A stretch of DNA of 56,088 bases from the NCBI GenBank assembly GCA_964486025.1, contig CAZAKL010000003.1:1-56088 (forward strand), given 5' to 3'. Each line of letters starts with the position of its first letter. Position 1 is the first letter of the stretch. Origin of the DNA: an uncultured archaeon (GTDB lineage: Archaea; Iainarchaeota; Iainarchaeia; JAADDC01). Under the pieces are notes generated by a model. That model did no database searches. It saw only the letters and a list, made by a program, of their open reading frames with translations, and was not told where the DNA came from. The position numbers and the translations under genes are program-made. Shown in pieces: positions 2,388-43,545 of this stretch.

Positions 2388-2407
2388 GGAAGCCCTTTCG
2401 GGCTTCC
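2388..2407. terminator. GC-rich hairpin between the pilin gene and pilT (possible attenuator)
   Basis: GGAAGCCC-TTTC-GGGCTTCC. The T-run lies on the plus-strand side only, so its function for the minus-strand operon is uncertain. Confidence 0.35.
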
Positions 2408-2411
2408 TCTT

Positions 2412-2996: not shown

Positions 2997-2997
2997 G

Positions 2998-3198: not shown

Positions 3199-3217
3199 CT
3201 CCTATAAAGAAAGTTTT

Positions 3218-7106: not shown

Positions 7107-7110
7107 AAAA

Positions 7111-9593: not shown

Positions 9594-9594
9594 A

Positions 9595-10563: not shown

Positions 10564-11443
10564 CTTCTCCTCCAGGCACGCAGTATTTTGCCCAGCCGTA
10601 TCCGAGGTCAAGGCACGTTCCACCACCCATCATCAGCGACATCCCTTCGACATTGAGAAACTCAGGTTCACTCTTCGCAACGAAAACGGGAATGTTTCCG
10701 AGTTCCTCAAACAGCTTCTCGTCAAGGTAGTGAGCAACGCCGCCTATTATCACGACCTTTTCAAAAGGAATTGAAAGGTTTGAGAATTCTCTTTCTATGA
10801 TGTTTACAAACCTTTCTGTAAACATCTCTATTGCTTTCTGCTTTTCCTCGTTCAGCTCTACCGTGCTGAAACCTGCAGAAAAGAAACCCTGTTCAAAAGC
10901 TTTCTCTATCAGTCCTCTCGTTGTTGGAACTTCCGGATACTTTTCCTCAATCTGCTTTCTGAAATAGGAAAGCAGAACCGCCATTGAGGCTTCGTCGTAT
11001 AGGCTCTTGCAGAATTCAACGCTGTCGCCTGCCAGGACCGCCGCATTCAACGTCCTCATTCCGGCGTCCATCAGCAGGACCCTTTTTGGCAGGTCAACCT
11101 TTCTTCTAAGAGCGTAGAGACCGGTCAGTCCTTGAGGTAGAACCTTCTTATTTGTCTTTTCTTCAAGTTCTTCTACTATCCCTCCACCTTTTTTCATTGA
11201 TCTGTAAAAGTCCTCAAGAGGAACGGAAATTGCGTCAACTTTCTTTCCGGTCTTCTCCTCGACATATTTGATAAAAATGGGATATGCCTTAATCAGTTGC
11301 TTCGTTGTTGCTATGTGGGAACACAGGTGGGGTTCCAGCAGTGCTGCGTCCCCGACAACGTAATACTTCCCTTCCACTTCAATGCTTCCGTCTTCCCTGA
11401 CGGGAACTGCCCTGTAGATGCTTCTCACCTTTCCCTTCTTCAT
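10529..11443 (-). CDS. Actin-like ATPase (PilM-like or ParM-like)
   Basis: Phosphate-2-like LLMDAGMRTLNAAV and adenosine-like VVIIGGVAHYL. First gene of the pilus block, but also preceded by an RHH protein and iterons. Confidence 0.55.
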   Translation of the reverse strand: MKKGKVRSIYRAVPVREDGSIEVEGKYYVVGDAALLEPHLCSHIATTKQLIKAYPIFIKYVEEKTGKKVDAISVPLEDFYRSMKKGGGIVEELEEKTNKKVLPQGLTGLYALRRKVDLPKRVLLMDAGMRTLNAAVLAGDSVEFCKSLYDEASMAVLLSYFRKQIEEKYPEVPTTRGLIEKAFEQGFFSAGFSTVELNEEKQKAIEMFTERFVNIIEREFSNLSIPFEKVVIIGGVAHYLDEKLFEELGNIPVFVAKSEPEFLNVEGMSLMMGGGTCLDLGYGWAKYCVPGGEDAERPSGEAEG

Positions 11444-14139: not shown

Positions 14140-14260
14140 CCGCATCCCCCTTTTTACTCGGACGGGGCGCAAATTTCTGATACCCCACTTCCATAAGCGT
14201 TATGTTAATGTATAATTATAATTAATTATGGCTAACGGGAACGGACAATCGGAGGACGAG

Positions 14261-15811: not shown

Positions 15812-15816
15812 GGTAA

Positions 15817-17364
15817 GTGGGTGTGCTTTACGACTACTTCATGAGGCTCAGGAAAAAGAAAAACGATGTTGAAGACTGGTTTACTTACAGGGTTTCAACG
15901 GGAGCAATCCTTGAGATTTTTTCTTCAAAGTTGAAGGATACAGAACCTGAAAGTGAGGAGATCGGCAGGAACATTTTCACCTACTTCTACGAACCTTCTG
16001 TTTCTATGAAAGAAATAAAAGATGAAGTAAAGAGAGAAGCCGTTAAAAAGTTCATGGGAAGATTCGTAGAGTGGACAAAAGGACTAAAAATCCTCACCAC
16101 CGACGACATAACCAATGCCGTGTCGGCAACGTTCAGTGTTCTGAAGGGTGCAATCGGCTACTACACTACGCTTTTAGAAGTCATAAAAGCAAGGAAGAAG
16201 TTGGAAGAGGTTGGAGATAAAACCGGGTCGGAGGAACTTAAAGAGATTCTGAAGGATGCTGTGAGCGAGATAGATAAACTCATAGAGGAGAGTAGTTTTG
16301 ACCAAGTCACGGGCATGATTGATAGCGCTAACAGGATTATCAAGGAAGCGATCTCTTTCGCGGAGAGTAAGGGTCTCCACAAAGAGTCTGACGAGATGTC
16401 CAGTGTGCTCTGCGAATACGTCAGCCTGTCCTACCTGCCGTCCCAGAAAGAGATACAGGAAGGGATGGAAAGAGCCAGAAACCTCGTGGAAGGCGTCATC
16501 AGAGCTGCGGGAGACAATCCTGCTTCCGTCAGCAACTACGAAAAAGCCATATATACCCTTTACCTTTCAAGGCAGGATCAAAACGTTCTGAAGTATCTCG
16601 GAAACCTTCTTGAGGTTTCTGAGGGAATGAGAAAAAGGGAAATATCGGAGGACCGCAGCACGAAGAGATACGGAAGAGAAATAGACAAAGCCGTTCCGTC
16701 GCAAATAGCCTTTCTGCTTGACGGTGACCTTTCAGACCTTGAGATGAAGAAGATAGCGGAAGGAACCCTGACCGTTTACGGAAGCTCAGAAAAAGAAAAG
16801 GCAGGATACGGACCATTCGTCATGTGTCTTGACGTTTCGGGGTCAATGAGGGAAATGAGGGAAAGGCTTCTTAGCAGGGCGAAGGCGGTGGCGATTTTTC
16901 TCGCCCTAAAGGCAAAGAAAAGGGGAATTCCCTTCATCCTGATTCCGTTTGACAGTGAGCCGAGAAAGGCGTTCATTCTGCTCCCAGACGAAAAGGACTA
17001 TATCAAAAAAGCTTTTGACAGGATAGGAAGGCTGACAGCCTGCGGCGGAACAAACTACACCAGAGCAATAGAAAAGGCACTTGAGGAATCCAGGAAGTTC
17101 TCTGAAAACTACGGCAGGAAACCAGATCTGCTGTTTATAAGCGACGGTAGACCGCATGACGAGTATAACCCCGAAGTCCTCTCCGAAGCTGAGGACTTCT
17201 TTGAATCAAAGGTGTTTGTCGGAATAGAGTGTGAGGTTACAATGGGATTTAATAACTTTTTTGATAAGAGCGTCGTATTCTCCGGTAGCGACTTCCACGA
17301 AAGGATAGCCGAGAGCGTGGACGAACTGCTGGAGGCGGAGAAAGGCAGAGGATTAACTCTTTAG
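15817..17364 (+). CDS. von Willebrand factor A (VWA) domain protein (ViaA-like partner of the MoxR ATPase)
   Basis: MIDAS motif FVMCLDVSGSMRE, GGTNYTRAI, LLFISDGRP. Helical N-terminal ~330 aa. Confidence 0.85.
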   Translation: MGVLYDYFMRLRKKKNDVEDWFTYRVSTGAILEIFSSKLKDTEPESEEIGRNIFTYFYEPSVSMKEIKDEVKREAVKKFMGRFVEWTKGLKILTTDDITNAVSATFSVLKGAIGYYTTLLEVIKARKKLEEVGDKTGSEELKEILKDAVSEIDKLIEESSFDQVTGMIDSANRIIKEAISFAESKGLHKESDEMSSVLCEYVSLSYLPSQKEIQEGMERARNLVEGVIRAAGDNPASVSNYEKAIYTLYLSRQDQNVLKYLGNLLEVSEGMRKREISEDRSTKRYGREIDKAVPSQIAFLLDGDLSDLEMKKIAEGTLTVYGSSEKEKAGYGPFVMCLDVSGSMREMRERLLSRAKAVAIFLALKAKKRGIPFILIPFDSEPRKAFILLPDEKDYIKKAFDRIGRLTACGGTNYTRAIEKALEESRKFSENYGRKPDLLFISDGRPHDEYNPEVLSEAEDFFESKVFVGIECEVTMGFNNFFDKSVVFSGSDFHERIAESVDELLEAEKGRGLTL

Positions 17365-25838: not shown

Positions 25839-26028
25839 AGAGTGGATTTCCGTTGCATACATTCCCAGCTCTTCGGAAGACGCAGTGCTGATTATAGACA
25901 TTGAAAATAGGAGAATCCGCAAAGAACCCCTCAGACAAGGGTCCGTGAAGATTAATAACTTTAAGGGAAAAGTATTTGCTTTCTCAAGCGATTTCTTAAA
26001 AGAGCTAAATGAAATGGCAGTTAAGTAG
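25816..26028 (+). CDS. Hypothetical small protein (70 aa)
   Basis: Overlaps the previous gene by 23 nt. ACTTGACAAA lies ~30 nt upstream. Confidence 0.4.
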   Translation: MGGKMKNKEWISVAYIPSSSEDAVLIIDIENRRIRKEPLRQGSVKINNFKGKVFAFSSDFLKELNEMAVK

Positions 26029-26866
26029 TCCTATCTATTATTCTCTTCAACCTTTCTCTCTTAATAAATCCCAGCCTCTTCATTCTTCTCTTCAGCAGGG
26101 GAAGGGTGTGGGGGCTTAGCTTCCTTTCTTCATACGGCAGGTCCCAGAGAAGCTCTTTCACTATTTCTTCAGGGTCGGTTTCTGAAAGTTTTTTTTTAAC
26201 GTTTTCTTCAAGGGTTTCCCTGAGGTCTTCAAGGAATTCTTTAAGGTCTTCCTCGCTTATCTCTTTCAGCATAAAGACGCTTCCTGTAAGCCCCAAGGTG
26301 TTCACGGCGAGAAGTTCCTCGTAGGGAACGGGGACTCTCTTTTCGTCTGCAAGGTCAAGTATTTCGTCAAGCTCTACCTTTCCCTCTTTAACTATGAAAT
26401 AGAGGTCAACGAGGTCTTTGAGTTCTGCCCTGTCTTCAAAGGCGACTATTTTGTTGACGGCTATGTTTTTGAGGGTGTCAAGATAGAAGTTTTCAACTTT
26501 GCGGGGATTTTTAAGGGGGCGGTCTGCTGCAAGGTCTATCTTGAGCTTGCATCTTCTGTCAACCTGAACATAGAGCCTGCCGAAGGAAACGGTAGAGCGC
26601 TCAACTTCTACTGGGTATCCAAGGTTTTCTATTTCCCCTACTATGACTGGAAGGGCGGCCTTGATGTTTTCCTCTGCCGTGAAGAGGTCAAGGTCTTCAG
26701 AGAGCCTGTGGTGGAAGTAAAACCTTGAGAGTGCCGTTCCGCCGGTCAGATAGAAGGCACTGCCGAATTTCCTTCCAACGGCGTTCAGTATCTCATTCTG
26801 AACCGGGTAGAGAACGGTTGAGTAGTATTCAACTTCTTTTGCAGTTGCAGGTCTTATCCTGAACAT
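26021..26866 (-). CDS. Nucleotidyltransferase, AbiEii/AbiGii toxin family
   Basis: GGTALSRFYFHHRLSEDLDLF is the characteristic N-terminal NTase motif of this family. Size 281 aa. Confidence 0.75.
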   Translation of the reverse strand: MFRIRPATAKEVEYYSTVLYPVQNEILNAVGRKFGSAFYLTGGTALSRFYFHHRLSEDLDLFTAEENIKAALPVIVGEIENLGYPVEVERSTVSFGRLYVQVDRRCKLKIDLAADRPLKNPRKVENFYLDTLKNIAVNKIVAFEDRAELKDLVDLYFIVKEGKVELDEILDLADEKRVPVPYEELLAVNTLGLTGSVFMLKEISEEDLKEFLEDLRETLEENVKKKLSETDPEEIVKELLWDLPYEERKLSPHTLPLLKRRMKRLGFIKRERLKRIIDRTT

Positions 26867-28195: not shown

Positions 28196-29611
28196 ATGAT
28201 AAAGCGACTGCTTTCGGTGGTAACTGCGGCAGCGGTGTTCGGAACTACCGTGCTTCCCTTTTATCCCGAGGAAGCCGAAGCTCTTCCCAAAATGCGGTAT
28301 TCGGTCTTTCAGAAGGGCGGTGACGTAGTGGTAGCGGTTTACAACCCTTACGCAAAAGAACTGAAGGTCATACACTACTGGCTCGGAATAGGCGTTCCGA
28401 GAGTCTATCAGTTCAGCAACACAGACTGCAAGACGTTTCCGATATGGACCTACGACGTTTCCGTTGATAAAACAAGAAAGATAAAGTGTCCGATTGACAG
28501 AAGATACAAGATAGAAGACCTTGATTGGTATAAATACATCGTCAAGGAAGACGGTAAGAAAGTGAACATGGACGGCGAGGACTTTTACGTCATCATACCG
28601 CCGTTTCTCAAATCCCCCGACGTTGACAGATATAGAGCCTGCCTCATCAGAGAAGGGGACGGAACTTCACCGCCATACTATTCGTATTACTGGCTTGACA
28701 ACCCCGGTGACGACTCTCAGGGATACATTGCGGGTATAGGTCCCGTATTTGGAGCTGTATGCAGGGAAATAGTTGACCCCAAATACATCAACCAGAGGTT
28801 TGGAACGCACTACGACAGGGGAGACTACGGGAAATCTGGACCGATAGAAAACGTCACTTTTAAGAACATATCCCTTTCCGACGCAATGGACCTCGTTGCG
28901 TCCTACATGAAAGTAAACGCAATTCCGATTGGACTTTTTGGCATAGAAACGCTGGATGTAACCAGAGAAACCCACAAGAGCTTATTCAAGAAGAAAGTCG
29001 TTTACAAGTGGTGGGAGAAAACGAACTGGAAAGTAATAGCCAAAGTTGATGGTGGAGTGCCATTCAAGTATGGCTATAACCTTCTAAACGGCGACGCCAT
29101 AGGAAACACACTTCCGCACAAGACAACCAAGATATATGAAGAAAGTCACAGCGGCTGGACAATGCTCGGGGTAATAGGATTTCAGCTGATAATGCTGGGA
29201 ATAGGTTGGGCTACTGGGTTGTTTAGCGTTGCTTCACCATACTTTGGGATGACTGATAAGATGTTTGCCGGAACCCTCGGCGGTTTCTTCGCCTTCAACG
29301 ATGTCTGGAACGTGGCGACGCAGGCTGGCGACACATACAAGTTATTCCAATCCGCAAACCCCGTTCCGTTCACCGACTTCACGAAAGACACGAGCGTTAC
29401 CACGGGCAAGGGATACGACCAGCTTGCCTCAAGGCTCAGAACGGGTTCGGACCTCCATCCGAACCTGAACGGATACACAGAAGCAAAGGACAGGCTTAAC
29501 GCAAGAGCCAAGTTCTGGAACTTGGGCAAGTTCCACCCGCCTTCGGACTATCCGAAAATCCAGTTTGACCTGCCAAAGGGCAAGGTAATAGTTCTTCCAG
29601 CAAATCAGTAG
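28196..29611 (+). CDS. Secreted/membrane protein of unknown function (471 aa)
   Basis: Signal peptide MIKRLLSVVTAAAVFGTTVLPF. Two C-terminal hydrophobic segments (GWTMLGVIGFQLIMLGIGWATGLF). Confidence 0.6.
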   Translation: MIKRLLSVVTAAAVFGTTVLPFYPEEAEALPKMRYSVFQKGGDVVVAVYNPYAKELKVIHYWLGIGVPRVYQFSNTDCKTFPIWTYDVSVDKTRKIKCPIDRRYKIEDLDWYKYIVKEDGKKVNMDGEDFYVIIPPFLKSPDVDRYRACLIREGDGTSPPYYSYYWLDNPGDDSQGYIAGIGPVFGAVCREIVDPKYINQRFGTHYDRGDYGKSGPIENVTFKNISLSDAMDLVASYMKVNAIPIGLFGIETLDVTRETHKSLFKKKVVYKWWEKTNWKVIAKVDGGVPFKYGYNLLNGDAIGNTLPHKTTKIYEESHSGWTMLGVIGFQLIMLGIGWATGLFSVASPYFGMTDKMFAGTLGGFFAFNDVWNVATQAGDTYKLFQSANPVPFTDFTKDTSVTTGKGYDQLASRLRTGSDLHPNLNGYTEAKDRLNARAKFWNLGKFHPPSDYPKIQFDLPKGKVIVLPANQ

Positions 29612-29621: not shown

Positions 29622-31325
29622 ATGCCAAGAAAATTGGTAGCTTTTCTAATACTTCTGCTTTTCCCTCTAACTGCTTTTGCGTATTACAAGACCGGCGTGG
29701 ATTTTCCGAACATACTGTTCGTCACGGCGAAGTGGGACGGAAGCAAATGGAAAGTTAAAGTCTCGGAGGCACCTCTTTACAGGGAAGCACCGGGGACGAA
29801 GCTGAAGACCAAAACAGTTGTAGAGGAAACGTGGGACTACCCTGACGGCGGCATGACGCTGAAGGACCTTGCAACCGCCCTGAACGGGGTGCTGGAAGTC
29901 AAACTTCCCGAATACGCGTCAACGTTCAATGCAAAAACCGTTATTGCCACTTTTCAGAAGGACTTTTCAAATACATACGTTGCAAGTTGGGATGGAGAAA
30001 GGGGATTTTACAGCTACGGCTGGCAGAAAGCAGGAAACAAAATTGGACTTTACTATTACTATTCAAAGTCCATAGACACTTCCACTCTTCCTCCGCCGCC
30101 TGCAGGTCTGCCTACTTCAGACCCCTCGTTAGCAACCAACCTCGGGAAATACAGGAGAATGATTATTTCCCTCACCACAGGTGAAGTTATCAGCGACGAC
30201 ATCGTTGACGTTAACGGTGCATACGACGCCGTTGATGACTCGGGAATAGACAGGTTTATCAGCGACGTCGTTGAACCCGACATAACCAAATACGGACTCT
30301 CATATGCGATAGTTCAATACATGTATTCCTTTACCCCCGTTCTTGACGCAGACGGGAAATATAAGATTTCAATTTCCATTCCGCACAGGGAAGTGGAGGT
30401 ATGTCCGGACGGCTCACAATACGATTGGGACACAAACACTTGCAGGAGAAGTGGAGGAGACGGCGTTTACTTTCTCACCGACAGCTTATTTTTGCTTGCT
30501 TTACCATTTGTAAGTAATGGACGATGCGATATAACAAATATTGGAGAAGTTGTTTTTAAGTCTCCTGGTTACTATAGCTTTAAATGTAGCAATGGTGCTG
30601 TAGGAAAGGTTTATTATTTTAAAGGGTTTTTAATCGAAGCTATCGTTAACGGTCAAAAGGTTTCTGCTCTATATAACGGTAGATATATATCCTCTAACTT
30701 CCGGCCTAATCCTAACGAGATGAACTACCTTGATATAATTTCTCCAACAGGCAGTTATCGTATTATCTTTCACAAAGCTCGTTCCGTCTCTGTTGCATTC
30801 GGTAGCAATGTCGTTCCTGTGAGTGTTAGTCTCGGTTTCCATGGTTACATCCTTTTTACCAAAGCTATCAAAGTTGGAAAAGCAACCTGTCGCATTATGT
30901 ATGAACCTTTAGGTAGTATTCTGTTTGGTTCTCAAGCTACTGATGAATCTTTGAAAATACCAGTTCCTGTAGGGACACAAGTTGAAGGAACTATAGATAT
31001 AGGAGGAACGGAACAAAAACCAGAATTTCGAAACTACAAAGAAACAATCCAGTATTCTTATCAGGTTGAAGCTGATTACAAGACCTATCTGATAGACAGC
31101 AACCTTAACAGGACTCTGATAGGATACGGTAAGAGAACGGGAAACTACTTTAGCTATTACTACGAAAAAGAGGTTAACTTCCCCGCTCTTTACAACGGTC
31201 AGGAGTGGACACCCGGTTCTGCGAAAGACCTGCTGAACATCATAATCACGCCAGAACACAACCGGTTCTACTTGATCTCGGCTTCCGAGAACGGAATACA
31301 AGTCGGTCCTTTAACCGTTAAGTAG
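29622..31325 (+). CDS. Secreted protein of unknown function (567 aa), compositionally mosaic
   Basis: Signal peptide LVAFLILLLFPLTAFA. The central ~600 nt are clearly more AT-rich with different codon choice. Confidence 0.6.
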   Translation: MPRKLVAFLILLLFPLTAFAYYKTGVDFPNILFVTAKWDGSKWKVKVSEAPLYREAPGTKLKTKTVVEETWDYPDGGMTLKDLATALNGVLEVKLPEYASTFNAKTVIATFQKDFSNTYVASWDGERGFYSYGWQKAGNKIGLYYYYSKSIDTSTLPPPPAGLPTSDPSLATNLGKYRRMIISLTTGEVISDDIVDVNGAYDAVDDSGIDRFISDVVEPDITKYGLSYAIVQYMYSFTPVLDADGKYKISISIPHREVEVCPDGSQYDWDTNTCRRSGGDGVYFLTDSLFLLALPFVSNGRCDITNIGEVVFKSPGYYSFKCSNGAVGKVYYFKGFLIEAIVNGQKVSALYNGRYISSNFRPNPNEMNYLDIISPTGSYRIIFHKARSVSVAFGSNVVPVSVSLGFHGYILFTKAIKVGKATCRIMYEPLGSILFGSQATDESLKIPVPVGTQVEGTIDIGGTEQKPEFRNYKETIQYSYQVEADYKTYLIDSNLNRTLIGYGKRTGNYFSYYYEKEVNFPALYNGQEWTPGSAKDLLNIIITPEHNRFYLISASENGIQVGPLTVK

Positions 31326-31328
31326 TGC

Positions 31329-31350
31329 GAAGGGACGGACACGTCCCTTC
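31329..31350. terminator. Bidirectional terminator hairpin between convergent operons
   Basis: Perfect 9-bp stem GAAGGGACG / CGTCCCTTC with loop GACA. Confidence 0.6.
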
Positions 31351-31388
31351 TATGCCTGCTTTCAGCCAGAATTCCGGAAAAATCTCTG

Positions 31389-31733
31389 CTATACCATTCC
31401 CTTGATGAAACCCCAAATGAAAAAGATAAGTATAGGAGCTAACATAAACACGACCAGAACAACTGCAGCGTCGTCCCTTCTCCGCTTCCTTTCGGGGGTT
31501 GGATTCCAGAGGAAAGCGAAGCACTCAAAAGAGAAGTAAAGGGATAAAAATCCAAGCACTACCACATAGGCGATGAACATGGTAAGGAAGGAATCCATAA
31601 GCCTGTAACTAGAGGAAAGGAGAATTATCCCCATCCACAGAGAGGCGAATCCGCCTGTCAGCGAGCTTGTAGCGAGGAGAAATGTCCACAATCTTTCCCA
31701 CACGCTTGTTTTTACTTCACGTGTTGTTCCCAT
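31389..31733 (-). CDS. Polytopic membrane protein (114 aa, ~4 TM)
   Basis: Hydrophobic segments; last gene of the subtilase operon. Confidence 0.55.
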   Translation of the reverse strand: MGTTREVKTSVWERLWTFLLATSSLTGGFASLWMGIILLSSSYRLMDSFLTMFIAYVVVLGFLSLYFSFECFAFLWNPTPERKRRRDDAAVVLVVFMLAPILIFFIWGFIKGMV

Positions 31734-31964
31734 CTACTCCTCCTCTAGCTCTTGCGGCGTGTTAAGAATAAGAGTTTCCTTGTGAACGCACACAAAGAGG
31801 TTCACAGGTTCATTACCTGCTTCCTTTTCTATGTGCTTTATATATTTTTCTTTTTTCTCTTCATCCTCATCCAGAAGAACGAGGAAGAGAGTTCTTTTTT
31901 TACCAAAGATGAAAGCATCGACGTAGCCTTCATCGTTGACCATCTCCTCGTAATACCAATCCAT
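31734..31964 (-). CDS. Hypothetical acidic protein (76 aa)
   Basis: Directly abuts the flanking genes on the same strand. Confidence 0.5.
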   Translation of the reverse strand: MDWYYEEMVNDEGYVDAFIFGKKRTLFLVLLDEDEEKKEKYIKHIEKEAGNEPVNLFVCVHKETLILNTPQELEEE

Positions 31965-33364
31965 TATTCACCCCCTTTAACTTTTTTCCATACCTCTTTA
32001 ACATATGCTACAAGCGCCCTCGGTGATGAAAAGGAAGTTCCGTAAGCAACCACCTTAACGTGATGCCTATATCTCAGATTCGTCCAGGGCTTTGCCAGAA
32101 CTTCGCCGTATTGATAGCGCTCTACTGAGCTTCCAGTGGTGTAAACGTTCTCAAGAAGCAATCCAAGAGCCTTTACGAGGTTTAAATCCTTTACGCTCTT
32201 ACTGTTGATGTTTCCTGCAGACTGGAAGAGAACTACTCCTTTGTTGTTCAGCTCTATCAGGTTCCTTGCTTTCTTCAGGCTTTCCAGAAATGTCCCTGCA
32301 TCTTTCGTTGAATCGCCCAGGGACACGTTTACGATGACAAACCCTTTCTCTTTTGCTATCTTCCTGAAAAGTTCTGCCAGCCTGCTTGTTAACCTGAACC
32401 CGAGAACGTATTTATTTCCCGTATTTACCTGTTCCGTTGCATACTCTACGGGAATGTTCTTCGGCATCAGCGACTTAATGGTGGCTTCAACTGCGCTTCC
32501 GTGCGTGAGAGTTGCAAAGACCGGGATAGGTCCGAAAAAGCCTACGGTCGTTTCCCTTTTCTTGAAGTCGTCAAGTATCACCACCTTGACCTTTTTCGCC
32601 TCTTTTAGTCTTCTTTTCGCCCTCTCAAGAGCTTCCTGCTGTGAAGACACCGTTATTCCGAAGTCCTTTTTCAGTTTTGAGAGGACAGAATACACGTCAG
32701 CTGCCCTGTCAGAGGGCTTACCGACAACCAGAGGTTCACTTGCAACAGAAGCTTTTACCAAGTCGCTTGGTCCGACAGAAAAGAAGAACGTGACCGCCAA
32801 TTGGACAATGAAAGCAGCAGAAAACAGCACGAAGAACTTTCTGTCCATAAAAGGCCTATATCTTCCCTTTTTGCTGAAAAGGACTTCCTTCCAGGAAGGT
32901 TTTGACCACATTTTCAAGAAATTGTAATTTGCAACGGACATTTCAAGGTAGCGCCGTATAGAGAAAATGATAGCCAACACGAGCAAAACACCTATTAGGA
33001 TATACAGGTGGGGGTTGCGTGCAAGGAAAACATATTCAAAGTGGAAAAGATCAAAGCACAGTAACAGTATCCCAACTACCGTTAGAACCTCTAACAGAGC
33101 TGAAGCCGTTTTATAGAGGGTGTTTCTTTTTACCCCCCTGTCTTTCAGAGTCACTATGACAGAAACCACCGTAGCGAATAGGAAGCTATTGATAAAGTGG
33201 AAAGCTATCACTAAGTATCCTTCACCGCCTTGAAGTCCCAAACTACCGCTTCTTATCAGGGCATATCTGTAAACCTCAGTAATCGCCAGAACGCCGATAA
33301 TAGGCCCAAGTATAATGGAAGCAAGCTCTAAAGAAGAGAGGCCCTTCTTCATTACTCCCTCCAC
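31964..33364 (-). CDS. Membrane-anchored subtilase (peptidase S8) with a polytopic N-terminal domain
   Basis: The catalytic residues come in subtilase order: D in VKVVILDDF, H in TLTHGSAVE, VIVNVSLGD, N in FQSAGNINS, S in YGTSFSSPRA. About 6 TM segments in residues 1-200. Confidence 0.8.
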   Translation of the reverse strand: MEGVMKKGLSSLELASIILGPIIGVLAITEVYRYALIRSGSLGLQGGEGYLVIAFHFINSFLFATVVSVIVTLKDRGVKRNTLYKTASALLEVLTVVGILLLCFDLFHFEYVFLARNPHLYILIGVLLVLAIIFSIRRYLEMSVANYNFLKMWSKPSWKEVLFSKKGRYRPFMDRKFFVLFSAAFIVQLAVTFFFSVGPSDLVKASVASEPLVVGKPSDRAADVYSVLSKLKKDFGITVSSQQEALERAKRRLKEAKKVKVVILDDFKKRETTVGFFGPIPVFATLTHGSAVEATIKSLMPKNIPVEYATEQVNTGNKYVLGFRLTSRLAELFRKIAKEKGFVIVNVSLGDSTKDAGTFLESLKKARNLIELNNKGVVLFQSAGNINSKSVKDLNLVKALGLLLENVYTTGSSVERYQYGEVLAKPWTNLRYRHHVKVVAYGTSFSSPRALVAYVKEVWKKVKGGE

Positions 33365-33579
33365 GGTTGAGTGAGTTTGTAAGCGATGTAAAGAGGTCCT
33401 CCAACTGCAGCTGCAAAGAGACCGACCATCACAATCGGAACCAGAACAAACCCGAAGGTCCAGAGCATGTCAAGGAAGATGTCAAAAACCGCGTTCTGAG
33501 CCTGAGGCGGTGCGTTTACCACCGCAATTGCCAGAACCGCCGTCACTATCCCTATCAATACAAATCCTCTAATTCCCAT
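33352..33579 (-). CDS. Small 2-TM membrane protein (75 aa)
   Basis: The ATG at 33579 is preceded by GGGGAGGT. The longer tracked ORF (to 33936) crosses another gene. Confidence 0.55.
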   Translation of the reverse strand: MGIRGFVLIGIVTAVLAIAVVNAPPQAQNAVFDIFLDMLWTFGFVLVPIVMVGLFAAAVGGPLYIAYKLTQPWRE

Positions 33580-33608
33580 CGCAACCTCCCCTATCTGGAT
33601 TATAGGGA

Positions 33609-33803
33609 TTAACGCTTCGACGTTAGCACCGAAATAGGAATCACAACTGCTATTGACACAATCATTGAAACAACAAATCCCCAGCCGATTGCATGGGTCA
33701 TGAACTTTATGAACGCCTCCTCTTTGTCGCCTACGGCGTTCACAAAAGCGTCGTAGTGCTTTGAGAACCTTATCACTGCGTCCCAGAAAGAGAGGCAGAA
33801 CAT
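33609..33803 (-). CDS. Small 1-TM membrane protein (64 aa)
   Basis: The ATG at 33803 is preceded by GGAGGTCAAAG. C-terminal TM WGFVVSMIVSIAVVIPISVL. Confidence 0.5.
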   Translation of the reverse strand: MFCLSFWDAVIRFSKHYDAFVNAVGDKEEAFIKFMTHAIGWGFVVSMIVSIAVVIPISVLTSKR

Positions 33804-34103: not shown

Positions 34104-34424
34104 ATGAGAGTTGAGAAAAGTAGAGATGAGCTGAAGAAAAAGCTGGTTGAAAAGGCGAGTAAGAGGCAGTCGTTTGAGAACCTCGACAGACTGCTTGAGT
34201 GGGTTCTGAACGAAACGGTTGTAAAGGGTAAGAGGGAAATCGTGAGAAATCCTAAGGAGGCATTTGAAGACAGGATAGTCCTGGTAATGGACAGGAAAAC
34301 GCCTAAGGGCGTTTTTATAAGTTTTGATGCAGCTGCCGAGCTACCGGCAGAGTTGAGAGCTTTTCTCTCAATGGTGCTGAACGCCGGCGGCTGCAAACTT
34401 TTATCAAATTCTTTAAAGGAGTAG
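34104..34424 (+). CDS. Putative antitoxin of the PIN toxin (106 aa)
   Basis: Small gene 4 nt upstream of the PIN gene. No fold recognised. Confidence 0.5.
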   Translation: MRVEKSRDELKKKLVEKASKRQSFENLDRLLEWVLNETVVKGKREIVRNPKEAFEDRIVLVMDRKTPKGVFISFDAAAELPAELRAFLSMVLNAGGCKLLSNSLKE

Positions 34425-34428: not shown

Positions 34429-34962
34429 ATGGAAAAGGAATCATCAAAGAAAGTTAAACTCACCGTGGTAGTAATTGACGCGTCAAAACTTTACCAGCTT
34501 GCGAGGTTTGTCTGCAAAAACGCGGATAAGCCCGACAAGCTGGACTCGGAAGCTGTGGTGAAAGAACCGCAGAACGTCTGGGAAGTTATACTCGCTGCTC
34601 AGAACAAAAACTACCTGCTGGCAACCACAGTAATGAACGCCAAAAGAGCATGGGAAGCTTACAAAAAGAAGGAACTGGCAGGGAAAATCCCCGAAGAAGA
34701 AATTGAGAAACTCAAAGAACTCTACCTGAAAAACCTTGAACTGCTTCAGCTGGCGGTATTCTCTGAAGAGTGCTATGAAGATATTTTACCAGAATGTATT
34801 GAATTTCTGCAAGACGACGACCCTGAAGCTGAAGATTCCCACGCCCTTGCCCTGGCTCGAGCGCTGAGTGAAGTCGCGGAAGAGGTCCTTCTGTGGACCA
34901 GCGACAAGGATTTTGCGCGGGCAGCTTCGCTGGGAATCAAGGTCGTCAGCAAGCTCATATAA
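34429..34962 (+). CDS. PIN-domain ribonuclease (VapC-like toxin, enlarged)
   Basis: Acidic quartet pattern: VVVIDAS, a mid-region E, EDSHALALARAL, LWTSDKDFARAASLGIKVV. Confidence 0.7.
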   Translation: MEKESSKKVKLTVVVIDASKLYQLARFVCKNADKPDKLDSEAVVKEPQNVWEVILAAQNKNYLLATTVMNAKRAWEAYKKKELAGKIPEEEIEKLKELYLKNLELLQLAVFSEECYEDILPECIEFLQDDDPEAEDSHALALARALSEVAEEVLLWTSDKDFARAASLGIKVVSKLI

Positions 34963-35941
34963 GAAAGACGAAGAAACGCTTGAAGAATGACTTTACGGCG
35001 TGGACGGTCTTGTTCACGCCGCTTTTGAGCGTTTTAACGAACTTTTCTATCAAACTCTCTTCCGTTTTTTCTGAGCGCCTATGAACTTCCTCACCTATTT
35101 CCTGCGGTATGGATTTTTCAGGTTGAGGGGTCTCTCTTGACATCTGTTCAACTATCTTTTCTATTTCTCTGACCTTCTCTGCAGCACTTTCAACCTTTGA
35201 CTCTATTTCTGCCTTTTTTAGTTTCCAGAGGGACTCAAAGTCAACGGCAAGTTCCTCTGCAAGGAATTCTGCCAGCTCGCCGACTTCGGTTTCAAGAAGT
35301 TTTTCTCTTTCCCTCGGCGGTTCAAAGGAAACGTAGGTGATTTCAAGGTCGGCAATCTCTTTAAAGATTTCCTCATCGGCTGGCAGTTCCAGGACTGTTC
35401 CCGGTTCCTGCAGAGAAAGGGGCATTGGCGGGGGAAGTTCCTCGGGGTAAAACTCAACTTCCGGTTCAAGCGGGACTTTTTGAGACAGCGGGAATTCCGA
35501 CACGGACGCACCTTCGGGCAGGGGAAGAGACAGCTGTTTCGGCTCTCTCTCTTCAAGGGGTGCTTCGGCTTCAAACTCGGCAAGCTCTCTAAACGGTTCC
35601 CACTGTTCCTCTAACCTTTCCCTTACCCTTTTGCGAACCTTAAACAGTTCTTCAAGTTCTTTCTCGCTCTCTTTCTTTATCTCGTCCAGTAAAGCCCTGA
35701 GATCGGGTTCAATCTTTTTGAAGATGAGAACTCTCTTTTTCGTGTCTATCCTGTCCAGTATAACCGGAAGATCGCCGAACGCGGCAACCATCTTGACTTC
35801 GTCAATCTGAATCTTCCTCTTCCTGAAGGCGCGGTAGGGGATTTTGACGAAGTCCCCTTTTGCTCTTTTCAGGTAGGAAAGAATTATTCTCTTTATCTCT
35901 TCTTCTCTGCTTATTCCTTTGTGCTTCGCAGGAGAAGTCAT
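34955..35941 (-). CDS. Acidic coiled-coil/proline-rich protein with a hydrophobic C-terminal tail
   Basis: 328 aa. Basic N-terminal ~90 aa, E/P-rich middle, C-terminus VKSFFKRFFVFLI. Divergent from polB. Confidence 0.6.
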   Translation of the reverse strand: MTSPAKHKGISREEEIKRIILSYLKRAKGDFVKIPYRAFRKRKIQIDEVKMVAAFGDLPVILDRIDTKKRVLIFKKIEPDLRALLDEIKKESEKELEELFKVRKRVRERLEEQWEPFRELAEFEAEAPLEEREPKQLSLPLPEGASVSEFPLSQKVPLEPEVEFYPEELPPPMPLSLQEPGTVLELPADEEIFKEIADLEITYVSFEPPREREKLLETEVGELAEFLAEELAVDFESLWKLKKAEIESKVESAAEKVREIEKIVEQMSRETPQPEKSIPQEIGEEVHRRSEKTEESLIEKFVKTLKSGVNKTVHAVKSFFKRFFVFLI

Positions 35942-36020
35942 TTACAGCCCCTTACCCTTTACACCGTTCCAGTATGTTGTTATTATACATTATAGAAAAT
36001 TTTTACAACAGGGGGCACAC

Positions 36021-37442
36021 ATGTGGGCAGTCATTGAGAAAACGCCGGCAGGCTACGAGGTCTATACCAAGAAGGGCGTAAAGTTTCACAAGAGGAAAGA
36101 CGCCCTGTGGAAATATCTGAAAAAGTGCGACAGGGTTTTCGTCGTTGACAGGCTTTCCTTCCTTGAGTTCATGGAAATTGACATTGATGACAAAATAGCC
36201 GAAAAGGTCGTTGACATCTCCGAAGTAATGAGGGAATACTTCACGGGCGAAGAATACAGGGACATACTTCTTGCTCTTGAGGAACTCGGGTTCAACCCGG
36301 CAGACATAAGGCACTCAATAGGCGGGCTTGCGCTTCAGGTAAAAAAGCTTCTTCCCGAGAAGCTGTTCATACTGTCGGCCGAAGAAAGAAGGCTTGCAGA
36401 TGAGGCTTTCTACGGGGGAAGGGCAGAAAACTTCGTAAAGAGAATTAGAAGCCCCGAAGGAAAAATCGTCTGCTACGACATAAACTCTTCCTATCCATAC
36501 GTGATGTCTTCCTATCCCTACCCCGACACGACCGAAAAGCCGCTCTTTTTGAAGAACCTTTCCCCTTCCGAAGTTCAGAGATACCACGAAGCGGGATACT
36601 GCGGTCTGTGCTTCATAGAGGCAGAAGAAAACTACAGGTTTCCGCGCCTTCCCGTGAGAGTCTGGCAGGGTAACGACTACGTGACCTACTACCCGGCGGG
36701 AAAGATAGAAGGCTACTACACTTCTGCAGACGCCGTTCTCTTTAACGACGACGAGTGCATCGTGAGGGAATTCATAGCCTATCCCATGATGGAAAGCCCC
36801 TTCAAGGAATACGTCACCAAGCTCTACCACAGCAGGTTAGAGCTGAGGAAAAAAGGCTCTAAAGGTGAAAAAGTGATAAAAGCGGTTATGAACACGATGT
36901 TTGGAGTTGTTTCAATAAAGAGCAGCGTTTACAGCAACAGGATTCTCGGTGCCTTCATCACCGCCTATCAGAGGCAGAGGCTTTTCAGGGGGATACTGAC
37001 GGCTGACAGCCTGAGGGTGCCGGTCCTCTACTGCGACACCGATTCCCTCTGGGTTTTGCCAAACGGAAAGAGGGAAAAGCTTGAAAGAGCGCTTGGCGTC
37101 AGGAAAGAGAAAAAGTTTGGCGCCTGGGATACGAGATACGACGGCGTAATAGAGATGTTCTGCGTTAGGCCGAAAGGTTATATGTTTACTTTGCTCGGCG
37201 GTAAGACCGAATACGTCTGGAGCGGTTTGCCGAAGAACTCTCTCGTTCTCAGCATTGACGAAAAAGGCATAACTTATGAACTGATAGTTGACCAGTGGAC
37301 GGAACCAAAGAGAGTAAAAGAGTTCCTGCCTGCAGGCGGGGTTGACAGAAGGAAGTTTATCAGCGACGTGTATTCCGTTCCGTTCAGGATCGAGGAAATA
37401 TCTTCCTGCGAAAGGAAGACAGTTATGGAAGTTACAGTTTAA
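36021..37442 (+). CDS. polB: Compact family-B DNA polymerase (473 aa) with a degenerate exonuclease region
   Basis: YxGG motif FYGGRAE, motif A YDINSSYPY, motif B KAVMNTMFG, motif C LYCDTDS, KxY RPKGYMF. Only ~150 aa precede YGGR. AGGGGG SD before the ATG at 36021. Confidence 0.85.
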   Translation: MWAVIEKTPAGYEVYTKKGVKFHKRKDALWKYLKKCDRVFVVDRLSFLEFMEIDIDDKIAEKVVDISEVMREYFTGEEYRDILLALEELGFNPADIRHSIGGLALQVKKLLPEKLFILSAEERRLADEAFYGGRAENFVKRIRSPEGKIVCYDINSSYPYVMSSYPYPDTTEKPLFLKNLSPSEVQRYHEAGYCGLCFIEAEENYRFPRLPVRVWQGNDYVTYYPAGKIEGYYTSADAVLFNDDECIVREFIAYPMMESPFKEYVTKLYHSRLELRKKGSKGEKVIKAVMNTMFGVVSIKSSVYSNRILGAFITAYQRQRLFRGILTADSLRVPVLYCDTDSLWVLPNGKREKLERALGVRKEKKFGAWDTRYDGVIEMFCVRPKGYMFTLLGGKTEYVWSGLPKNSLVLSIDEKGITYELIVDQWTEPKRVKEFLPAGGVDRRKFISDVYSVPFRIEEISSCERKTVMEVTV

Positions 37443-37782: not shown

Positions 37783-39726
37783 ATGGAACTGAAAGGGCAG
37801 GTCGTAAAGACCGGGAAAGGATACCTCGTTGTTCACACCAACCTTGGAACCGTCAAAGTTGAGACGGACATTCAGGCTGCAAAAGGCACGTCCGTCACGC
37901 TTGACGTTGAATACAAAAACGGAAGGTTCGTTGCGAAAAAGGTTGAGTTTGACAGCGGTGACTATGTTCTGAAGTATCTGATGAGCATAAAGGGAATAGG
38001 ACCAAAGACCGCCGAGAAGCTCTACAGAGAATACGGCGAGTCAATCATTGAGAGAATAAAAGACGAGGAATTTCTGAAAAGAGTTACAGGTGGAAGGGCA
38101 ACTTCTTCCGCTTCTTGGCTGAAGGGTTATGAGAAGGTATACGGTCTTCTCAGAACGGCAGTCGGCGAAAAGAGAGCCGAGTCCGCCGTCCGATTCCTGA
38201 AGAGGGAAAAGGTCAGCTTTGAAGAAAACCCATACGTTCTTCTGAAGCTGAAAGGTTTTGGCTTCAAAACGGTTGACAGGATAGCCCTTCAGTTCATCCC
38301 GGAGGATTCACCCCTTAGGATCAGACAGCTCGTGAGATACCTGCTTGAACAGGCGGAACAAAAAGGTCACATGTATTTGGAGGTTGACGACCTGAAGAAG
38401 AAGCTGATGGCACACCTCGGCAGGGAAGTTCCGCTGGTCCTTCCGGAAGATGTAAAAAGAACGGGAGACAAGATATATCTTGAGAAGAACCTTGAAACTG
38501 AAAGGAAGATAGCTACATACCTTTCCTGCCAGGAAACCTACGAGGAAGAGAGGAAAACGAGTCCCGAGCTGAAGCTTACAGAAGAGCAGGAAAGGGCGGT
38601 TGAGCTGTGCCTTAGAAACAAAATATGCGCAATCACCGGTTATGCGGGAACTGGAAAGACTACCGTTTTAAGAGAGGTCGTGAAGGAATTTGAAAGCAGG
38701 GGATACGAGATAGCCCTGCTTGCGCCGACGGGGAAGGCTGCAAAGAGGCTTGAAGAGGTCCTCAAGAGACCGGCGTTCACGATACACAGAGCCGTCTATC
38801 AGGACGAGCTGATTTTCCCTGACGTGGTTATCGTCGACGAGAGTTCCATGATTGACTCACACACGATGAAGTGGCTTCTTTCCTATGTTTACGATAAAAG
38901 GGTGATTTTCGTCGGGGATACAGCACAGCTTCCCCCCGTCGGACCGGGTCAACCCTTCAGAGACCTGGTTGAAAGCGGTGAAGTCCCGACGGCAAGGCTG
39001 ACGAAAATTCTCAGAAACGCAGGCGAGATAGTGATAAGCGCGGACAGAGTGAGAAGGGGGGATTTTCCCCTGAAGACGAAAGGAAACTTCTGCTGGCATA
39101 CGGCGTTTTCCGAAGAGAAAATTGCTGCCCTGCTTGAGAAAGCAAAGGAAAAAGGGGTAGAGGTGCAGCTTCTCGGAGGCATATACAAGGGAAGATACGG
39201 CGTTGACAGCCTCAACAGGCTTGCGCAGGAAGTTCTGAATCCCGACGGTGGTAGAGAGTGGAAGGGCTTCCGCGTCGGGGACAGGGTCATTCACACCGGA
39301 AGCAACGACTACAACAGCTTCGTCATGAACGGCGACACCGGAAAAGTCGTTGAAGTCCAGCAGGGAAAGGTGGCCGTTGAGTTCTGGGACGGGAAGACCA
39401 AAACATACACTTCTGACGACGTTCAGAACCTTTCTCTTGCCTACGCGATGACGGTTCACAAATCTCAGGGAAGCGAATACGACTACGCTGCGGTGGTCTT
39501 TGACACCTCTTCCTACTCTGTTATAAACAGATACTGGCTTTACACGGCGCTCACGAGAGCAAAGAAAAAATGCTTCCTCTTCGCGGATATGAAGGCAGTT
39601 GCAACCGCCGTCAAGAACTCCTCATACCCCGAAAGGAAAACGTTCCTACGGGAGCTTATTGGAAACAAGGAGCTTTTCAATGATATTGATAACAAACAAA
39701 ACCTTATGCAGAGATTATCTTTCTAA
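37783..39726 (+). CDS. recD: RecD2-like SF1 DNA helicase
   Basis: HhH IKGIGPKTAEKL, Walker A GYAGTGKTT, VIVDESSM, VGDTAQLPPVGPG, TVHKSQGSEYD. Confidence 0.9.
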   Translation: MELKGQVVKTGKGYLVVHTNLGTVKVETDIQAAKGTSVTLDVEYKNGRFVAKKVEFDSGDYVLKYLMSIKGIGPKTAEKLYREYGESIIERIKDEEFLKRVTGGRATSSASWLKGYEKVYGLLRTAVGEKRAESAVRFLKREKVSFEENPYVLLKLKGFGFKTVDRIALQFIPEDSPLRIRQLVRYLLEQAEQKGHMYLEVDDLKKKLMAHLGREVPLVLPEDVKRTGDKIYLEKNLETERKIATYLSCQETYEEERKTSPELKLTEEQERAVELCLRNKICAITGYAGTGKTTVLREVVKEFESRGYEIALLAPTGKAAKRLEEVLKRPAFTIHRAVYQDELIFPDVVIVDESSMIDSHTMKWLLSYVYDKRVIFVGDTAQLPPVGPGQPFRDLVESGEVPTARLTKILRNAGEIVISADRVRRGDFPLKTKGNFCWHTAFSEEKIAALLEKAKEKGVEVQLLGGIYKGRYGVDSLNRLAQEVLNPDGGREWKGFRVGDRVIHTGSNDYNSFVMNGDTGKVVEVQQGKVAVEFWDGKTKTYTSDDVQNLSLAYAMTVHKSQGSEYDYAAVVFDTSSYSVINRYWLYTALTRAKKKCFLFADMKAVATAVKNSSYPERKTFLRELIGNKELFNDIDNKQNLMQRLSF

Positions 39727-40160: not shown

Positions 40161-40772
40161 ATGAAAAAGTTTTGGAAAGAGGACGTTTTAGAAAACATCT
40201 TCAGTGAATTGAACGACGAGCTGAAACACAAGAAAATTAGCATTCCCAGAGAAAGAGAAGAAGAGGGAAGAAAAAAAACTCAGAAATTGTTTTCTGAGGC
40301 TGCCAAATGGGAGGAAAGAGAGGCAAAGAGAGTAGTAGAGGTATTGCATTTGCTGTTTAATGTATTTTGGGAAGAGAAAAAGAAGGAAAGAGAAAAGGCT
40401 GAGATACTTTTTAGCCTTTTAGAGAAGAGACGTATACCTAAATGGGAAGCTATTTTTGTTGCGAAAGTTCTTTTTGACCATTTACTTCCCGCTGAAAAAC
40501 CCGGCAGGTTAATCGAATATTACAATCTGTATGTTCCGATTTATAGAAGAAAAGCTGTAGATAGCATTGCACGATACATTATCTCTGAGCTGATGAAATT
40601 GAAGAGAGTTCAGGTAGTGGAAGATTATAAGGTTGTTCTAAAGAAAGGAATAAGCTCCATAATAATTGATTACAACTGGGGAATCATAGATGGAAACGAA
40701 GGAACGAGTGTTAATCGTTGTAGCTGGGCCCAACGGAGCGGGGAAAAGCACGTTCATAAGAATGCTAATTAA
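40161..40772 (+). CDS. Hypothetical K/E-rich protein (203 aa), AT-rich
   Basis: GGGAGATGAA SD. Its 3' end overlaps the next gene by 83 nt. Confidence 0.5.
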   Translation: MKKFWKEDVLENIFSELNDELKHKKISIPREREEEGRKKTQKLFSEAAKWEEREAKRVVEVLHLLFNVFWEEKKKEREKAEILFSLLEKRRIPKWEAIFVAKVLFDHLLPAEKPGRLIEYYNLYVPIYRRKAVDSIARYIISELMKLKRVQVVEDYKVVLKKGISSIIIDYNWGIIDGNEGTSVNRCSWAQRSGEKHVHKNAN

Positions 40773-41373
40773 AAAGGGGCAGATTGATCCCAAGGACTAT
40801 GTTTGTCCTGACGAGATTGTAAAGAATGAAGGATGGGATCCTTTTTCTAAAGAAGATGTTATAAAGGCTATGCAAAAAGCAGAAGAAATAAGAATTTGCA
40901 AAGTTCTGAAAGGTGAGAATGTAGTAATGGAAACTGTATTTTCTCACCCGTCAAAGATAGACTACATCAAGTTTGCTAAGGAGAAAGGCTACAAGGTAAT
41001 TTTTTTCTTCATAATGACGAGAAACGTGGAAATTAACAAAGAAAGGGTAAAAATAAGAGTTGAAGAGGGAGGACATCCCGTTCCCTTTGATAAGATTGAA
41101 AGCAGATTTAAAAGAAGTCTTGAAAATATGTTGCGAGTAGTTAAGGTGAAGGTTATAGATGAACTATTTGTGATTGATAACACGCAGAACTATAAAATCG
41201 TTGCAAAGGTAGATTTCTCAAGCGGAAAAGTCTGGATAAGTGAAGAAGTTTTAAGTGATGAGACTACCCGAGAAACTTTTGAAAAGCTTAAAGAATACAC
41301 ATCAGCTTTAGAAAGAAAGCCTACAGCTAAACTTAGTAGAGAAGAAAGGGAGAGTCCGCCACTTTCTCCTTAG
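40690..41373 (+). CDS. Zeta-toxin-like / COG4185-type P-loop kinase
   Basis: VLIVVAGPNGAGKSTF, ETVFSHPSK, GGHPVPFDKIESRFKRS. Confidence 0.7.
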   Translation: METKERVLIVVAGPNGAGKSTFIRMLIKKGQIDPKDYVCPDEIVKNEGWDPFSKEDVIKAMQKAEEIRICKVLKGENVVMETVFSHPSKIDYIKFAKEKGYKVIFFFIMTRNVEINKERVKIRVEEGGHPVPFDKIESRFKRSLENMLRVVKVKVIDELFVIDNTQNYKIVAKVDFSSGKVWISEEVLSDETTRETFEKLKEYTSALERKPTAKLSREERESPPLSP

Positions 41374-43218: not shown

Positions 43219-43545
43219 ATGAAGAAGGAAATTGACAGGTCGCTGAAGAAAACAGAGGGAACCCTTCGCTATCTCAGGCTTGCCGTTTTCATCGTTTACG
43301 TCGTGATTCTCGTTGCGCCTCAGGCTTTTGCGTTCAACCCGGGTGATTTCGGACAGAACGTAGCGAACGTGGCAAAACAGATACTGCAGCCCTTGGGTTG
43401 GGTAATTGCGGTAGTTAAGGGCGCGCAGGTGTTCACGGACGAACACAACAGGGTGAGAAACGCCCTCTACATGATTGCGGGCGTAGCTCTTGGCTTCTGG
43501 GACGACACCATAAACTTCATAAAGGGACTCTGGGGTGGACAGTAA
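43219..43545 (+). CDS. trbC: T4SS pilin (TrbC/VirB2 family)
   Basis: Long signal peptide ending AFA, two hydrophobic helices, 108 aa. First gene of the VirB-like block. Confidence 0.7.
   Translation: MKKEIDRSLKKTEGTLRYLRLAVFIVYVVILVAPQAFAFNPGDFGQNVANVAKQILQPLGWVIAVVKGAQVFTDEHNRVRNALYMIAGVALGFWDDTINFIKGLWGGQ

Follow-up and report, generated by a model that had tools for sequence, protein, structure and literature searches.

Serine proteases of the S8 family (PF00082), among them subtilisin Carlsberg, SubTY (PDB 5ffn) and C5a peptidase, carry a catalytic Asp, His and Ser in this order together with an oxyanion Asn, and the same order is found in a predicted membrane protein encoded by contig CAZAKL010000003.1 of GenBank assembly GCA_964486025.1 (56,088 nucleotides, referred to in its full length as the window). 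The window represents a plasmid-like element of ~56.5 kb with a VirB-like type IV secretion system (T4SS) that includes VirB4, VirB9, VirB11 and a coupling protein, and the protein in question, g3, is the product of the third of five consecutive genes (g1–g5). The motifs common to g3 and the S8 proteases are xxIDxx, HGxxV, (I/V)N(M/V)S(L/F)G, (A/S)AGN and GTS(M/F)(A/S)xP. The D-H distance is 23 in the g3 family versus 32 in subtilisin, while the H-NxS and N-S distances are similar (58 versus 59 and 59 versus 66); 22 residues follow the catalytic Ser, compared with 54 in subtilisin, and the domain spans ~208–246 residues versus ~275. Unlike subtilisin, g3 has neither a signal peptide nor an I9-type propeptide and bears a predicted N-terminal anchor of five transmembrane helices.

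The closest analogy for the mode of action is offered by the mycosins (MycP), described (PMC5600315) as membrane-tethered subtilisin-like proteases of type VII (ESX) secretion with the catalytic domain outside the cytoplasm. In both cases a tethered subtilase is tied to a specialised secretion system. Mycosins, however, have a signal peptide, a single C-terminal transmembrane anchor and a full-size S8 domain easily recognised by Pfam, and they belong to the type VII systems of Actinobacteria and Firmicutes, whereas the neighbours of the g3 family are T4SS/Tra genes. No specific sequence relationship between g3 and the mycosins was seen; the likeness may concern how g3 works, not its family membership. 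Another parallel is provided by the S26 peptidases of the TraF (RP4), TrhF (R27) and TrbI type, which are, as predicted for g3, plasmid-encoded, membrane-anchored periplasmic serine peptidases accompanying a T4SS, and of which the TraF/TrhF-type enzymes mature pilin (PMC12037004). Their fold and mechanism, based on a Ser-Lys dyad, are different, and g3 has no S26 match (Peptidase_S26, PF10502). The S8 enzymes of ribosomally synthesised and post-translationally modified peptide (RiPP) pathways (LanP/CylA, PatA/PatG) act on small peptides encoded nearby, and the weak PDB profile matches include CylA (9ekq) and a cyanobactin protease (4h6w); unlike g3, these enzymes have no polytopic anchor, and the g3 locus has no biosynthetic cluster and its small open reading frames (ORFs) are not conserved.

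Profile, structural and conservation evidence together indicate that the C-terminal domain of g3 is a divergent and truly reduced S8 subtilase core with the Asp-His-Ser order and the oxyanion Asn, bearing out the initial annotation, which had proposed a polytopic membrane-anchored minimal subtilase with an intact triad. The parts of g3 are the following:

32777..33352, minus strand: N-terminal anchor, five predicted transmembrane helices (hydropathy and K/R counts)
31964..32776, minus strand: C-terminal S8 (subtilase) domain, residues 193–462 plus stop (Pfam, PDB profile, hhalign, Foldseek, invariant residues)
32572-32570, minus strand: codon of D261, putative catalytic Asp
32503-32501, minus strand: codon of H284, putative catalytic His
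32212-32210, minus strand: codon of N381, putative oxyanion Asn
32035-32033, minus strand: codon of S440, putative catalytic Ser

A profile of the C-terminal domain built from ten family members matched 24 PDB sequences at E<0.1, all of them S8 proteases. HMMER paired sHGevVe with EHGTHVS, iNmSlG with INMSLG, sAGN with AAGN and sGTSFssP with GTSMASP in the alignments to C5a peptidase and subtilisins, placing the His, Asn and Ser of the family on the catalytic motifs. By hhalign, the similarity to subtilisin Carlsberg reached E 6.7e-5 over the N155 and S221 motifs. When AlphaFold2 (AF2) was run with the nine-sequence family alignment, the mean predicted local distance difference test score (pLDDT) was 69.5, with block means in the domain mostly of ~70–93 and some dips, and the top three Foldseek matches of this model in the PDB were S8 proteases (probability 0.99–1.00; template modelling score 0.36–0.40; root-mean-square deviation 8–12 Å). 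A single-sequence AF2 model was discarded (pLDDT 42.8), and phmmer of g3 alone against the PDB yielded only spurious matches to the transmembrane segments of G-protein-coupled receptors.

The catalytic positions are strictly conserved across the family: D261, H284-G285, N342-x-S344, A379-G380-N381 and G438-T439-S440-F441 are invariant in 9–10 sequences that share 23–41% identity, and a further invariant motif, Q414-x-G416-E417, is family-specific. The canonical D/H/N/S order and the VNVSLG motif (residues 341–346), both pointed out in the initial annotation, are thus present in g3 and invariant across the family. Such invariance implies an active serine endopeptidase. If g3 is active, its subtilase catalytic domain (~210–250 residues) would be more reduced than any described to date, and its lack of a propeptide chaperone, its truncated C-terminus and its thermophile origin would bear on the minimal subtilisin fold and on enzyme engineering. 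Recognition by PF00082 is marginal, with scores of 29.0 bits for the homologue P0002, 21.9 for P0003, 20.6 for the L019 homologue and 17.8 for g3 at a gathering threshold of 21.8; most family members, including g3, fall below the cut-off, and none of the 11 members checked matched an NCBIfam or PADLOC model. P0002 and P0003 are 36–37% identical to g3 (E 1e-48 and 1e-47, respectively).

The five transmembrane helices of g3 are predicted by hydropathy at residues ~7–25, 48–66, 85–103, 114–132 and 173–191, and the K+R counts of the N-terminus and successive loops are 2, 2, 5, 1 and 11, with the basic loops 2 and 4 predicted to be cytoplasmic. Because of this K/R distribution over five helices (positive-inside rule), the C-terminal domain is predicted to lie outside, that is, g3 would be N-in with its ~260-residue C-terminal domain in the periplasm. 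Five helices are found in five of the eight family sequences with a transmembrane region and three in P0005, cruder calls give four for P0003 and six for P0009, and the odd helix number and the charge pattern recur across the family. The database entry of P0002 (281 residues) is a truncated gene call; the ORF at L015:230-1666 encodes 478 residues with the full transmembrane region. The membrane part has no invariant column in the family alignment and a pLDDT of 41–65, and it resembles an anchor or an interface under fast evolution. Since this confidence is low even with the alignment, a Foldseek reading of the transmembrane domain, proposed in the initial annotation, would be meaningless.

The start of g3 is read differently by different gene calls: the ORF list begins it at a GTG at 33364 (466 residues), whereas the ATG at 33352, which follows GGAGGGAG, gives the 462 residues that an independent gene caller also assigns (P0001). 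The anchor described in the initial annotation stands, with the figures given there (466 residues, ~6 helices and a ~215-residue domain) revised to 462 residues, five helices and a catalytic core of ~208 residues from β-1 to the end, or ~246 with the two short helices that precede it.

When 1.84 billion representatives were searched exhaustively with HMMER, nine clusters were recovered including that of the window, the eight others at E 1e-48 to 1e-8 and all unannotated; word-indexed protein searches with g3 or the family alignment returned almost nothing. When genome and metagenome contigs were scanned with a degenerate pattern (A4), two known contigs were found together with a new contig from a metagenome-assembled genome (L019). 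There is one cultured host, Thermovibrio ammonificans HB-1 (Aquificota), in which the homologue (WP_013524937, labelled 'hypothetical protein' in RefSeq) is carried by the 76.5-kb plasmid pTHEAM01 (MPF_F). The other members are metagenomic and bear neither a name nor a Pfam domain in the sources consulted, with a hydrothermal vent recorded for every sample that has a stated source. A T4SS conjugative context was evident in six of the nine elements examined (pTHEAM01, the P0003, P0004, P0005 and P0010 loci, and the window), these being the elements with enough surviving flanking sequence; the P0006 and P0007 contigs contain no T4SS gene. Within a few kilobases of the subtilase in the T4SS-linked elements lie F-type Tra genes, TraC, DsbC, an S26 peptidase or OmpA, the system of the window being VirB-like. 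The gene orders read from the metagenomic loci are:

P0010 locus: topoisomerase upstream; OmpA, DsbC, TraL, E, K, B, V, U, S26 peptidase, TraF and TraH downstream
P0003, P0004 and P0005 loci: DsbC, TraC, S26 peptidase, (SSB and HU in P0004 only), 354-residue protein, subtilase
P0006 locus: CBASS-like pair and integrase upstream of a 360-residue protein and the subtilase
P0007 locus: 351-residue protein upstream; SSB and HU convergent downstream
P0002 locus (2-kb contig): the sole legible neighbour, read by eye, is a probable SLT-type transglycosylase fragment at 51-233 that overlaps the subtilase start

Judged by gene context, the family belongs to the accessory genes of T4SS-bearing, conjugative plasmids or integrative elements in thermophiles of deep-sea vents. 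Neither the family nor any conjugative plasmid of Aquificota with such a gene is described in the literature searched. Although the fold family is known, the novelty lies in a deeply divergent subfamily of S8, so far unannotated, with a predicted five-helix N-terminal anchor, no propeptide, a truncated core and confinement to vent elements. What is flagged here is an unannotated family confined to conjugative elements of bacteria from hydrothermal vents, the transfer biology of which is practically unexplored, and a secretion-system-linked tethered protease on such elements would parallel the mycosins in type VII secretion.

In six loci, the gene immediately upstream of the subtilase homologue encodes a Cas4-like nuclease of 351–360 residues, often with overlapping stop and start codons. 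It has a PD-(D/E)xK core, a C...CxxC...C cluster (Fe-S) and a C-terminal extension of ~130 residues, and its profile matched PDB entry 4ic1 at E 1e-8, with the CxxC motif included in the alignment; the name line of this entry reads 'Uncharacterized protein', and we take it to be the Cas4 protein SSO0001. Pfam does not recognise the nuclease. Its positions are:

L005:2908-3972, L007:8934-9995, L010:8933-9997, L013:8922-10004, L014:1666-2721 and L019:159-656 (partial): Cas4-like nuclease
pTHEAM01 67996-69060: Cas4-like nuclease, unlinked from the subtilase and 32 kb off

The nuclease was considered as an obligate partner of the subtilase and rejected as such, because pTHEAM01 carries it without linkage to the subtilase and the window lacks it.

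In the window, g3 is embedded in a run of five tightly coupled consecutive ORFs on the minus strand (33803-31389; 64, 75, 462, 76 and 114 residues), and all five ORFs of the operon put forward in the initial annotation are present there. The genes around g3 and the adjoining hairpin are:

33609..33803, minus strand: g1, 64 residues; ATG 6 nt after GGAGG
33352..33579, minus strand: g2, 75 residues; GGGGAGG upstream; stop overlaps the g3 start as TAATG
31734..31964, minus strand: g4, 76 residues, acidic, soluble, pI 4.5; start overlaps the g3 stop as TAATG
31389..31733, minus strand: g5, 114 residues, basic, pI 9.4; ATG directly after the g4 TAG; AGGAGG 5 nt upstream
31329..31350, no strand assigned: perfect 9-bp hairpin GAAGGGACG-TGTC-CGTCCCTTC, read from the sequence, between the convergent g5 and 567-residue-protein genes

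This arrangement is that of a predicted translationally coupled operon. The hairpin is a possible bidirectional terminator candidate; it has no T-run and is not reported by a terminator scan that requires one. Upstream of g1, a promoter scan gave no convincing candidate on the minus strand; a weak TTGACA-17-TAGCTT was noted there by eye at 33864-33836.

Several observations bear on the reality of the small genes. An independent assembly of the same element from another run (L016) was called with genes of 64, 75, 462, 76 and 81 residues, and four more vent metagenome runs, which belong to a second study, contain near-identical variants of the region. In these variant contigs, g2 differs by 9 single-nucleotide polymorphisms, six of them synonymous and three conservative hydrophobic replacements (V>I, V>A, A>V), and g1 keeps its stop (TAA>TGA) with one T>I change. 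A g5 homologue (P0011, 113 residues, on the 517-bp contig L022) shares 72% identity with g5 across 96% of the query, shows a ratio of nonsynonymous to synonymous substitution rates (dN/dS) of ~0.31, and has the same ATG and Shine-Dalgarno sequence, which favours the 114-residue start of g5 over the 81-residue call. Directly upstream of P0011, L022 again carries the C-terminal 43 codons of g4, nearly identical to those of the window. Thus g1, g2, g4 and g5 are real small genes, predicted to be co-transcribed and translationally coupled, and specific to the lineage of the window element. The alignment of L022:1-517 with window 31380-31880 is a mosaic, with ~97% DNA identity in the 3' end of g4 and ~80% in the adjacent g5, and 11 extra nucleotides in L022 turn the g4 C-terminus from ELEEE into EFLKK; the pattern suggests a recombination boundary or a faster evolution of g5.

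The g1 protein has a soluble amphipathic N-terminal stretch of 40 residues, one C-terminal transmembrane helix (residues ~42–60) and a TSKR tail, and g2 is a two-helix transmembrane hairpin with a predicted N-in/C-in topology. For g5, which has the conserved core LYFSFECFAFLWNPTPERK.RRD.AAVVL, the four transmembrane helices proposed initially hold up as three to four hydrophobic segments, only two of which pass a strict threshold. No family match was found for g4 (Pfam, NCBIfam, PADLOC). By BLASTP and maximum-sensitivity phmmer, counterparts of g1, g2, g4 and g5 are absent beside the eight other subtilase homologues and anywhere on pTHEAM01; the phmmer search, which took in every ORF of at least 30 residues from the window, pTHEAM01 and the related loci, gave only composition-level matches at E>0.01. 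Among PLSDB plasmids, blastn and tblastn with the region, g2 and g5 returned the pTHEAM01 subtilase as the sole match, and g2 and g5 themselves had none. The protease is thus the only constant across loci, the five-gene ensemble is lineage-specific and the small genes are not obligatory partners. The idea of the five genes as a functional ensemble, raised in the initial annotation, accordingly loses its footing: it is the operon as a unit, not the subtilase, that is absent from related elements, where the neighbours differ. The 'ensemble' should therefore not be propagated as a system in annotations, only the protease being conserved.

We consider it somewhat probable that g3 is an element-encoded, inner-membrane-tethered periplasmic endopeptidase acting on envelope or secretion-apparatus proteins. 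It would be a shortened S8 endopeptidase that five transmembrane helices of low conservation tether to the inner membrane, with its catalytic domain on the periplasmic side, where it would act by limited proteolysis at the membrane surface; we infer that its substrates belong to the envelope or the secretion apparatus of the element or the host. The restriction of the family to T4SS-bearing elements indicates a role in the envelope biology of conjugation, as does its frequent position among DsbC, OmpA, S26 and Tra proteins.

A number of points weigh against this assignment. The window protein scores below the Pfam S8 cut-off; D261 is assigned only from its position, invariance and spacing, because the catalytic Asp appears in no profile alignment to a solved subtilase; and template modelling scores of 0.36–0.40 on the target make the fold match a partial one. 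The topology is a prediction from hydropathy and the charge rule. The g3 gene was found in no RNA-seq run searched. The neighbours vary by element, and the upstream gene coupled to the subtilase in six loci encodes a cytoplasmic Cas4-like nuclease, which is no pointer to an envelope role.

A more specific role for the periplasmic endopeptidase, which we regard as doubtful, is that of a T4SS accessory protease that matures a component of the pilus or mating channel in thermophile plasmids, through C-terminal trimming or cyclisation of pilin, or confers exclusion by cleaving an incoming component. If true, this would place a third protease class in conjugation biology beside LepB and the TraF-type S26 enzymes, with the smallest known functional subtilase core.

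Pilin maturation as the function of the family, already suggested in the initial annotation, appears unlikely. Here, the S8 domain would act on the VirB2/TrbC-type pilin of the window, either by C-terminal trimming or by cyclisation, taking over the job of the RP4 C-terminal protease or of TraF:

43219-43545: TrbC/VirB2 pilin

Both termini of TrbC-type pilins are periplasmic, as the protease domain would be, and PatG is a precedent for an S8 macrocyclase. Before cyclisation, for which TraF/TrhF is the proposed cyclase, 27 residues are removed from the C-terminus of the RP4 pilin TrbC and 5 from that of R27 TrhA (PMC12037004). The association of the family with T4SS elements is in keeping with such a role, and so is the finding that neither the window nor pTHEAM01 has a detectable S26/TraF-type peptidase, with nothing significant in the window for the S26 proteins of related elements. 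However, the P0003, P0004, P0005 and P0010 elements carry an S26 peptidase and the subtilase together, so the two are not alternatives, which weakens the earlier argument that the subtilase replaces a missing TraF. Moreover, the subtilase gene never adjoins a pilin gene in the loci read, and the T4SS is F-type in the relatives but VirB-like in the window, so that the family would have to deal with unrelated pilins as substrates.

A role in exclusion or defence is quite improbable. In such a device g3, alone or together with its neighbours (g1, g2, g4 and g5 in the window, the Cas4-like nuclease in one clade), would break down proteins of an incoming mating apparatus or phage in the periplasm or set off an abortive response. 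The gene does sit in accessory, cargo-like regions near toxin-antitoxin and defence genes (the 106-residue/PIN pair; AbiEii and zeta in the window), a CBASS (CD-NTase and Cap15) and an integrase lie a few kilobases upstream in L013, the subtilase is translationally coupled to the nuclease in six loci, and g5 resembles small inner-membrane exclusion proteins in size and character, a resemblance only. Nevertheless, no PADLOC-DB v2 family was matched at E<=0.01 by the five operon proteins and five neighbours, the nuclease lies 32 kb from the subtilase on pTHEAM01 and does not occur in the window, the small genes lack conservation, and no sensor/effector logic is evident.

A mainly structural or scaffolding role of g3, with proteolysis dispensable, is very unlikely. 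It has a model in MycP of the ESX systems, the proteolytic activity of which is reported to be dispensable, and it would fit a family that is membrane-tethered and associated with secretion systems, with a membrane part that evolves fast, as expected of a partner-specific interface; yet the four catalytic residues and their motifs are strictly invariant at 23–41% identity, which argues that catalysis is under selection.

Finally, a peptide-toxin or bacteriocin module, in which g1 and/or g2 would be precursors cleaved LanP-like by the subtilase and g5 the immunity protein, is hardly credible: two small hydrophobic ORFs do precede the S8 protease directly, a small polytopic protein follows it, and the leader peptidases LanP, CylA and PatA are S8 enzymes with CylA- and PatA-type structures among the weak PDB matches, but the operon contains no modification enzyme, ABC exporter or double-glycine leader (no Pfam/NCBIfam match to LanB/C/M, YcaO, rSAM or ABC/C39 families), g1 and g2 resemble integral membrane proteins rather than leader-core peptides, and homologous subtilases occur without such small genes, so that toxin maturation cannot be the conserved role of the protease family. 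Neither the toxin/immunity pair nor the abortive-infection device of the initial annotation thus gained positive evidence, PADLOC matches and RiPP or bacteriocin machinery being absent from the operon. Processing of the two neighbouring secreted proteins, also suggested there, fared no better, having no comparative support from other elements. These proteins, of 471 residues (28196-29611, plus strand) and 567 residues (29622-31325, plus strand), have signal-peptide-like N-termini and are encoded convergently to the operon; they have no Pfam or PADLOC match and no homologue in the related loci or pTHEAM01.

The only micro-synteny common to the window and pTHEAM01 is a gene pair beside the subtilase, inverted in the window, for a 106-residue protein and a PIN-like protein. 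The pair, a probable toxin-antitoxin system, occupies 34104-34424 (plus strand, 106 residues) and 34429-34962 (plus strand, 177 residues) of the window, and its pTHEAM01 counterparts (L001:6009-6323 and 6372-6863) are 50% and 38% identical, with a PIN_2 domain detected there. Further accessory genes of the window encode an AbiEii-type nucleotidyltransferase toxin (26021-26866, minus strand) and a zeta-toxin-like kinase (40690-41373, plus strand). In the P0006 element, the CBASS-like pair (L013:5198-6811) consists of a CD-NTase C-terminal domain and a Cap15-type effector and lies, together with integrase and IS605-family genes, a few kilobases upstream of the nuclease–subtilase pair.

The window also carries an SLT gene and, at 1316-11443 on the minus strand, a cluster resembling type IV pilus and type II secretion systems, with two T2SSE ATPases, a T2SSF platform protein, a secretin, an SH3-domain protein and a weak actin-like (MreB-like_C) match; no prepilin peptidase was detected in this cluster, and a similar one is present on pTHEAM01 at ~44.7–60.4 kb. 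A MoxR-AAA/VWA pair, likewise accessory, is encoded at 14228-17364 (plus strand). A protein-primed-type family B DNA polymerase (35919-37442, plus strand; PF03175, E 1.5e-18) and a RecD2-like helicase (37783-39726, plus strand) make up an unusual replication module for a conjugative plasmid, and the syntenic position on pTHEAM01 is occupied by a 507-residue hypothetical protein with no Pfam match. Between the PIN pair and the polymerase gene, with a slight overlap at both ends, lies the gene for a highly acidic, Glu/Pro/Leu-rich low-complexity protein of 328 residues that matches no family (34955-35941, minus strand).

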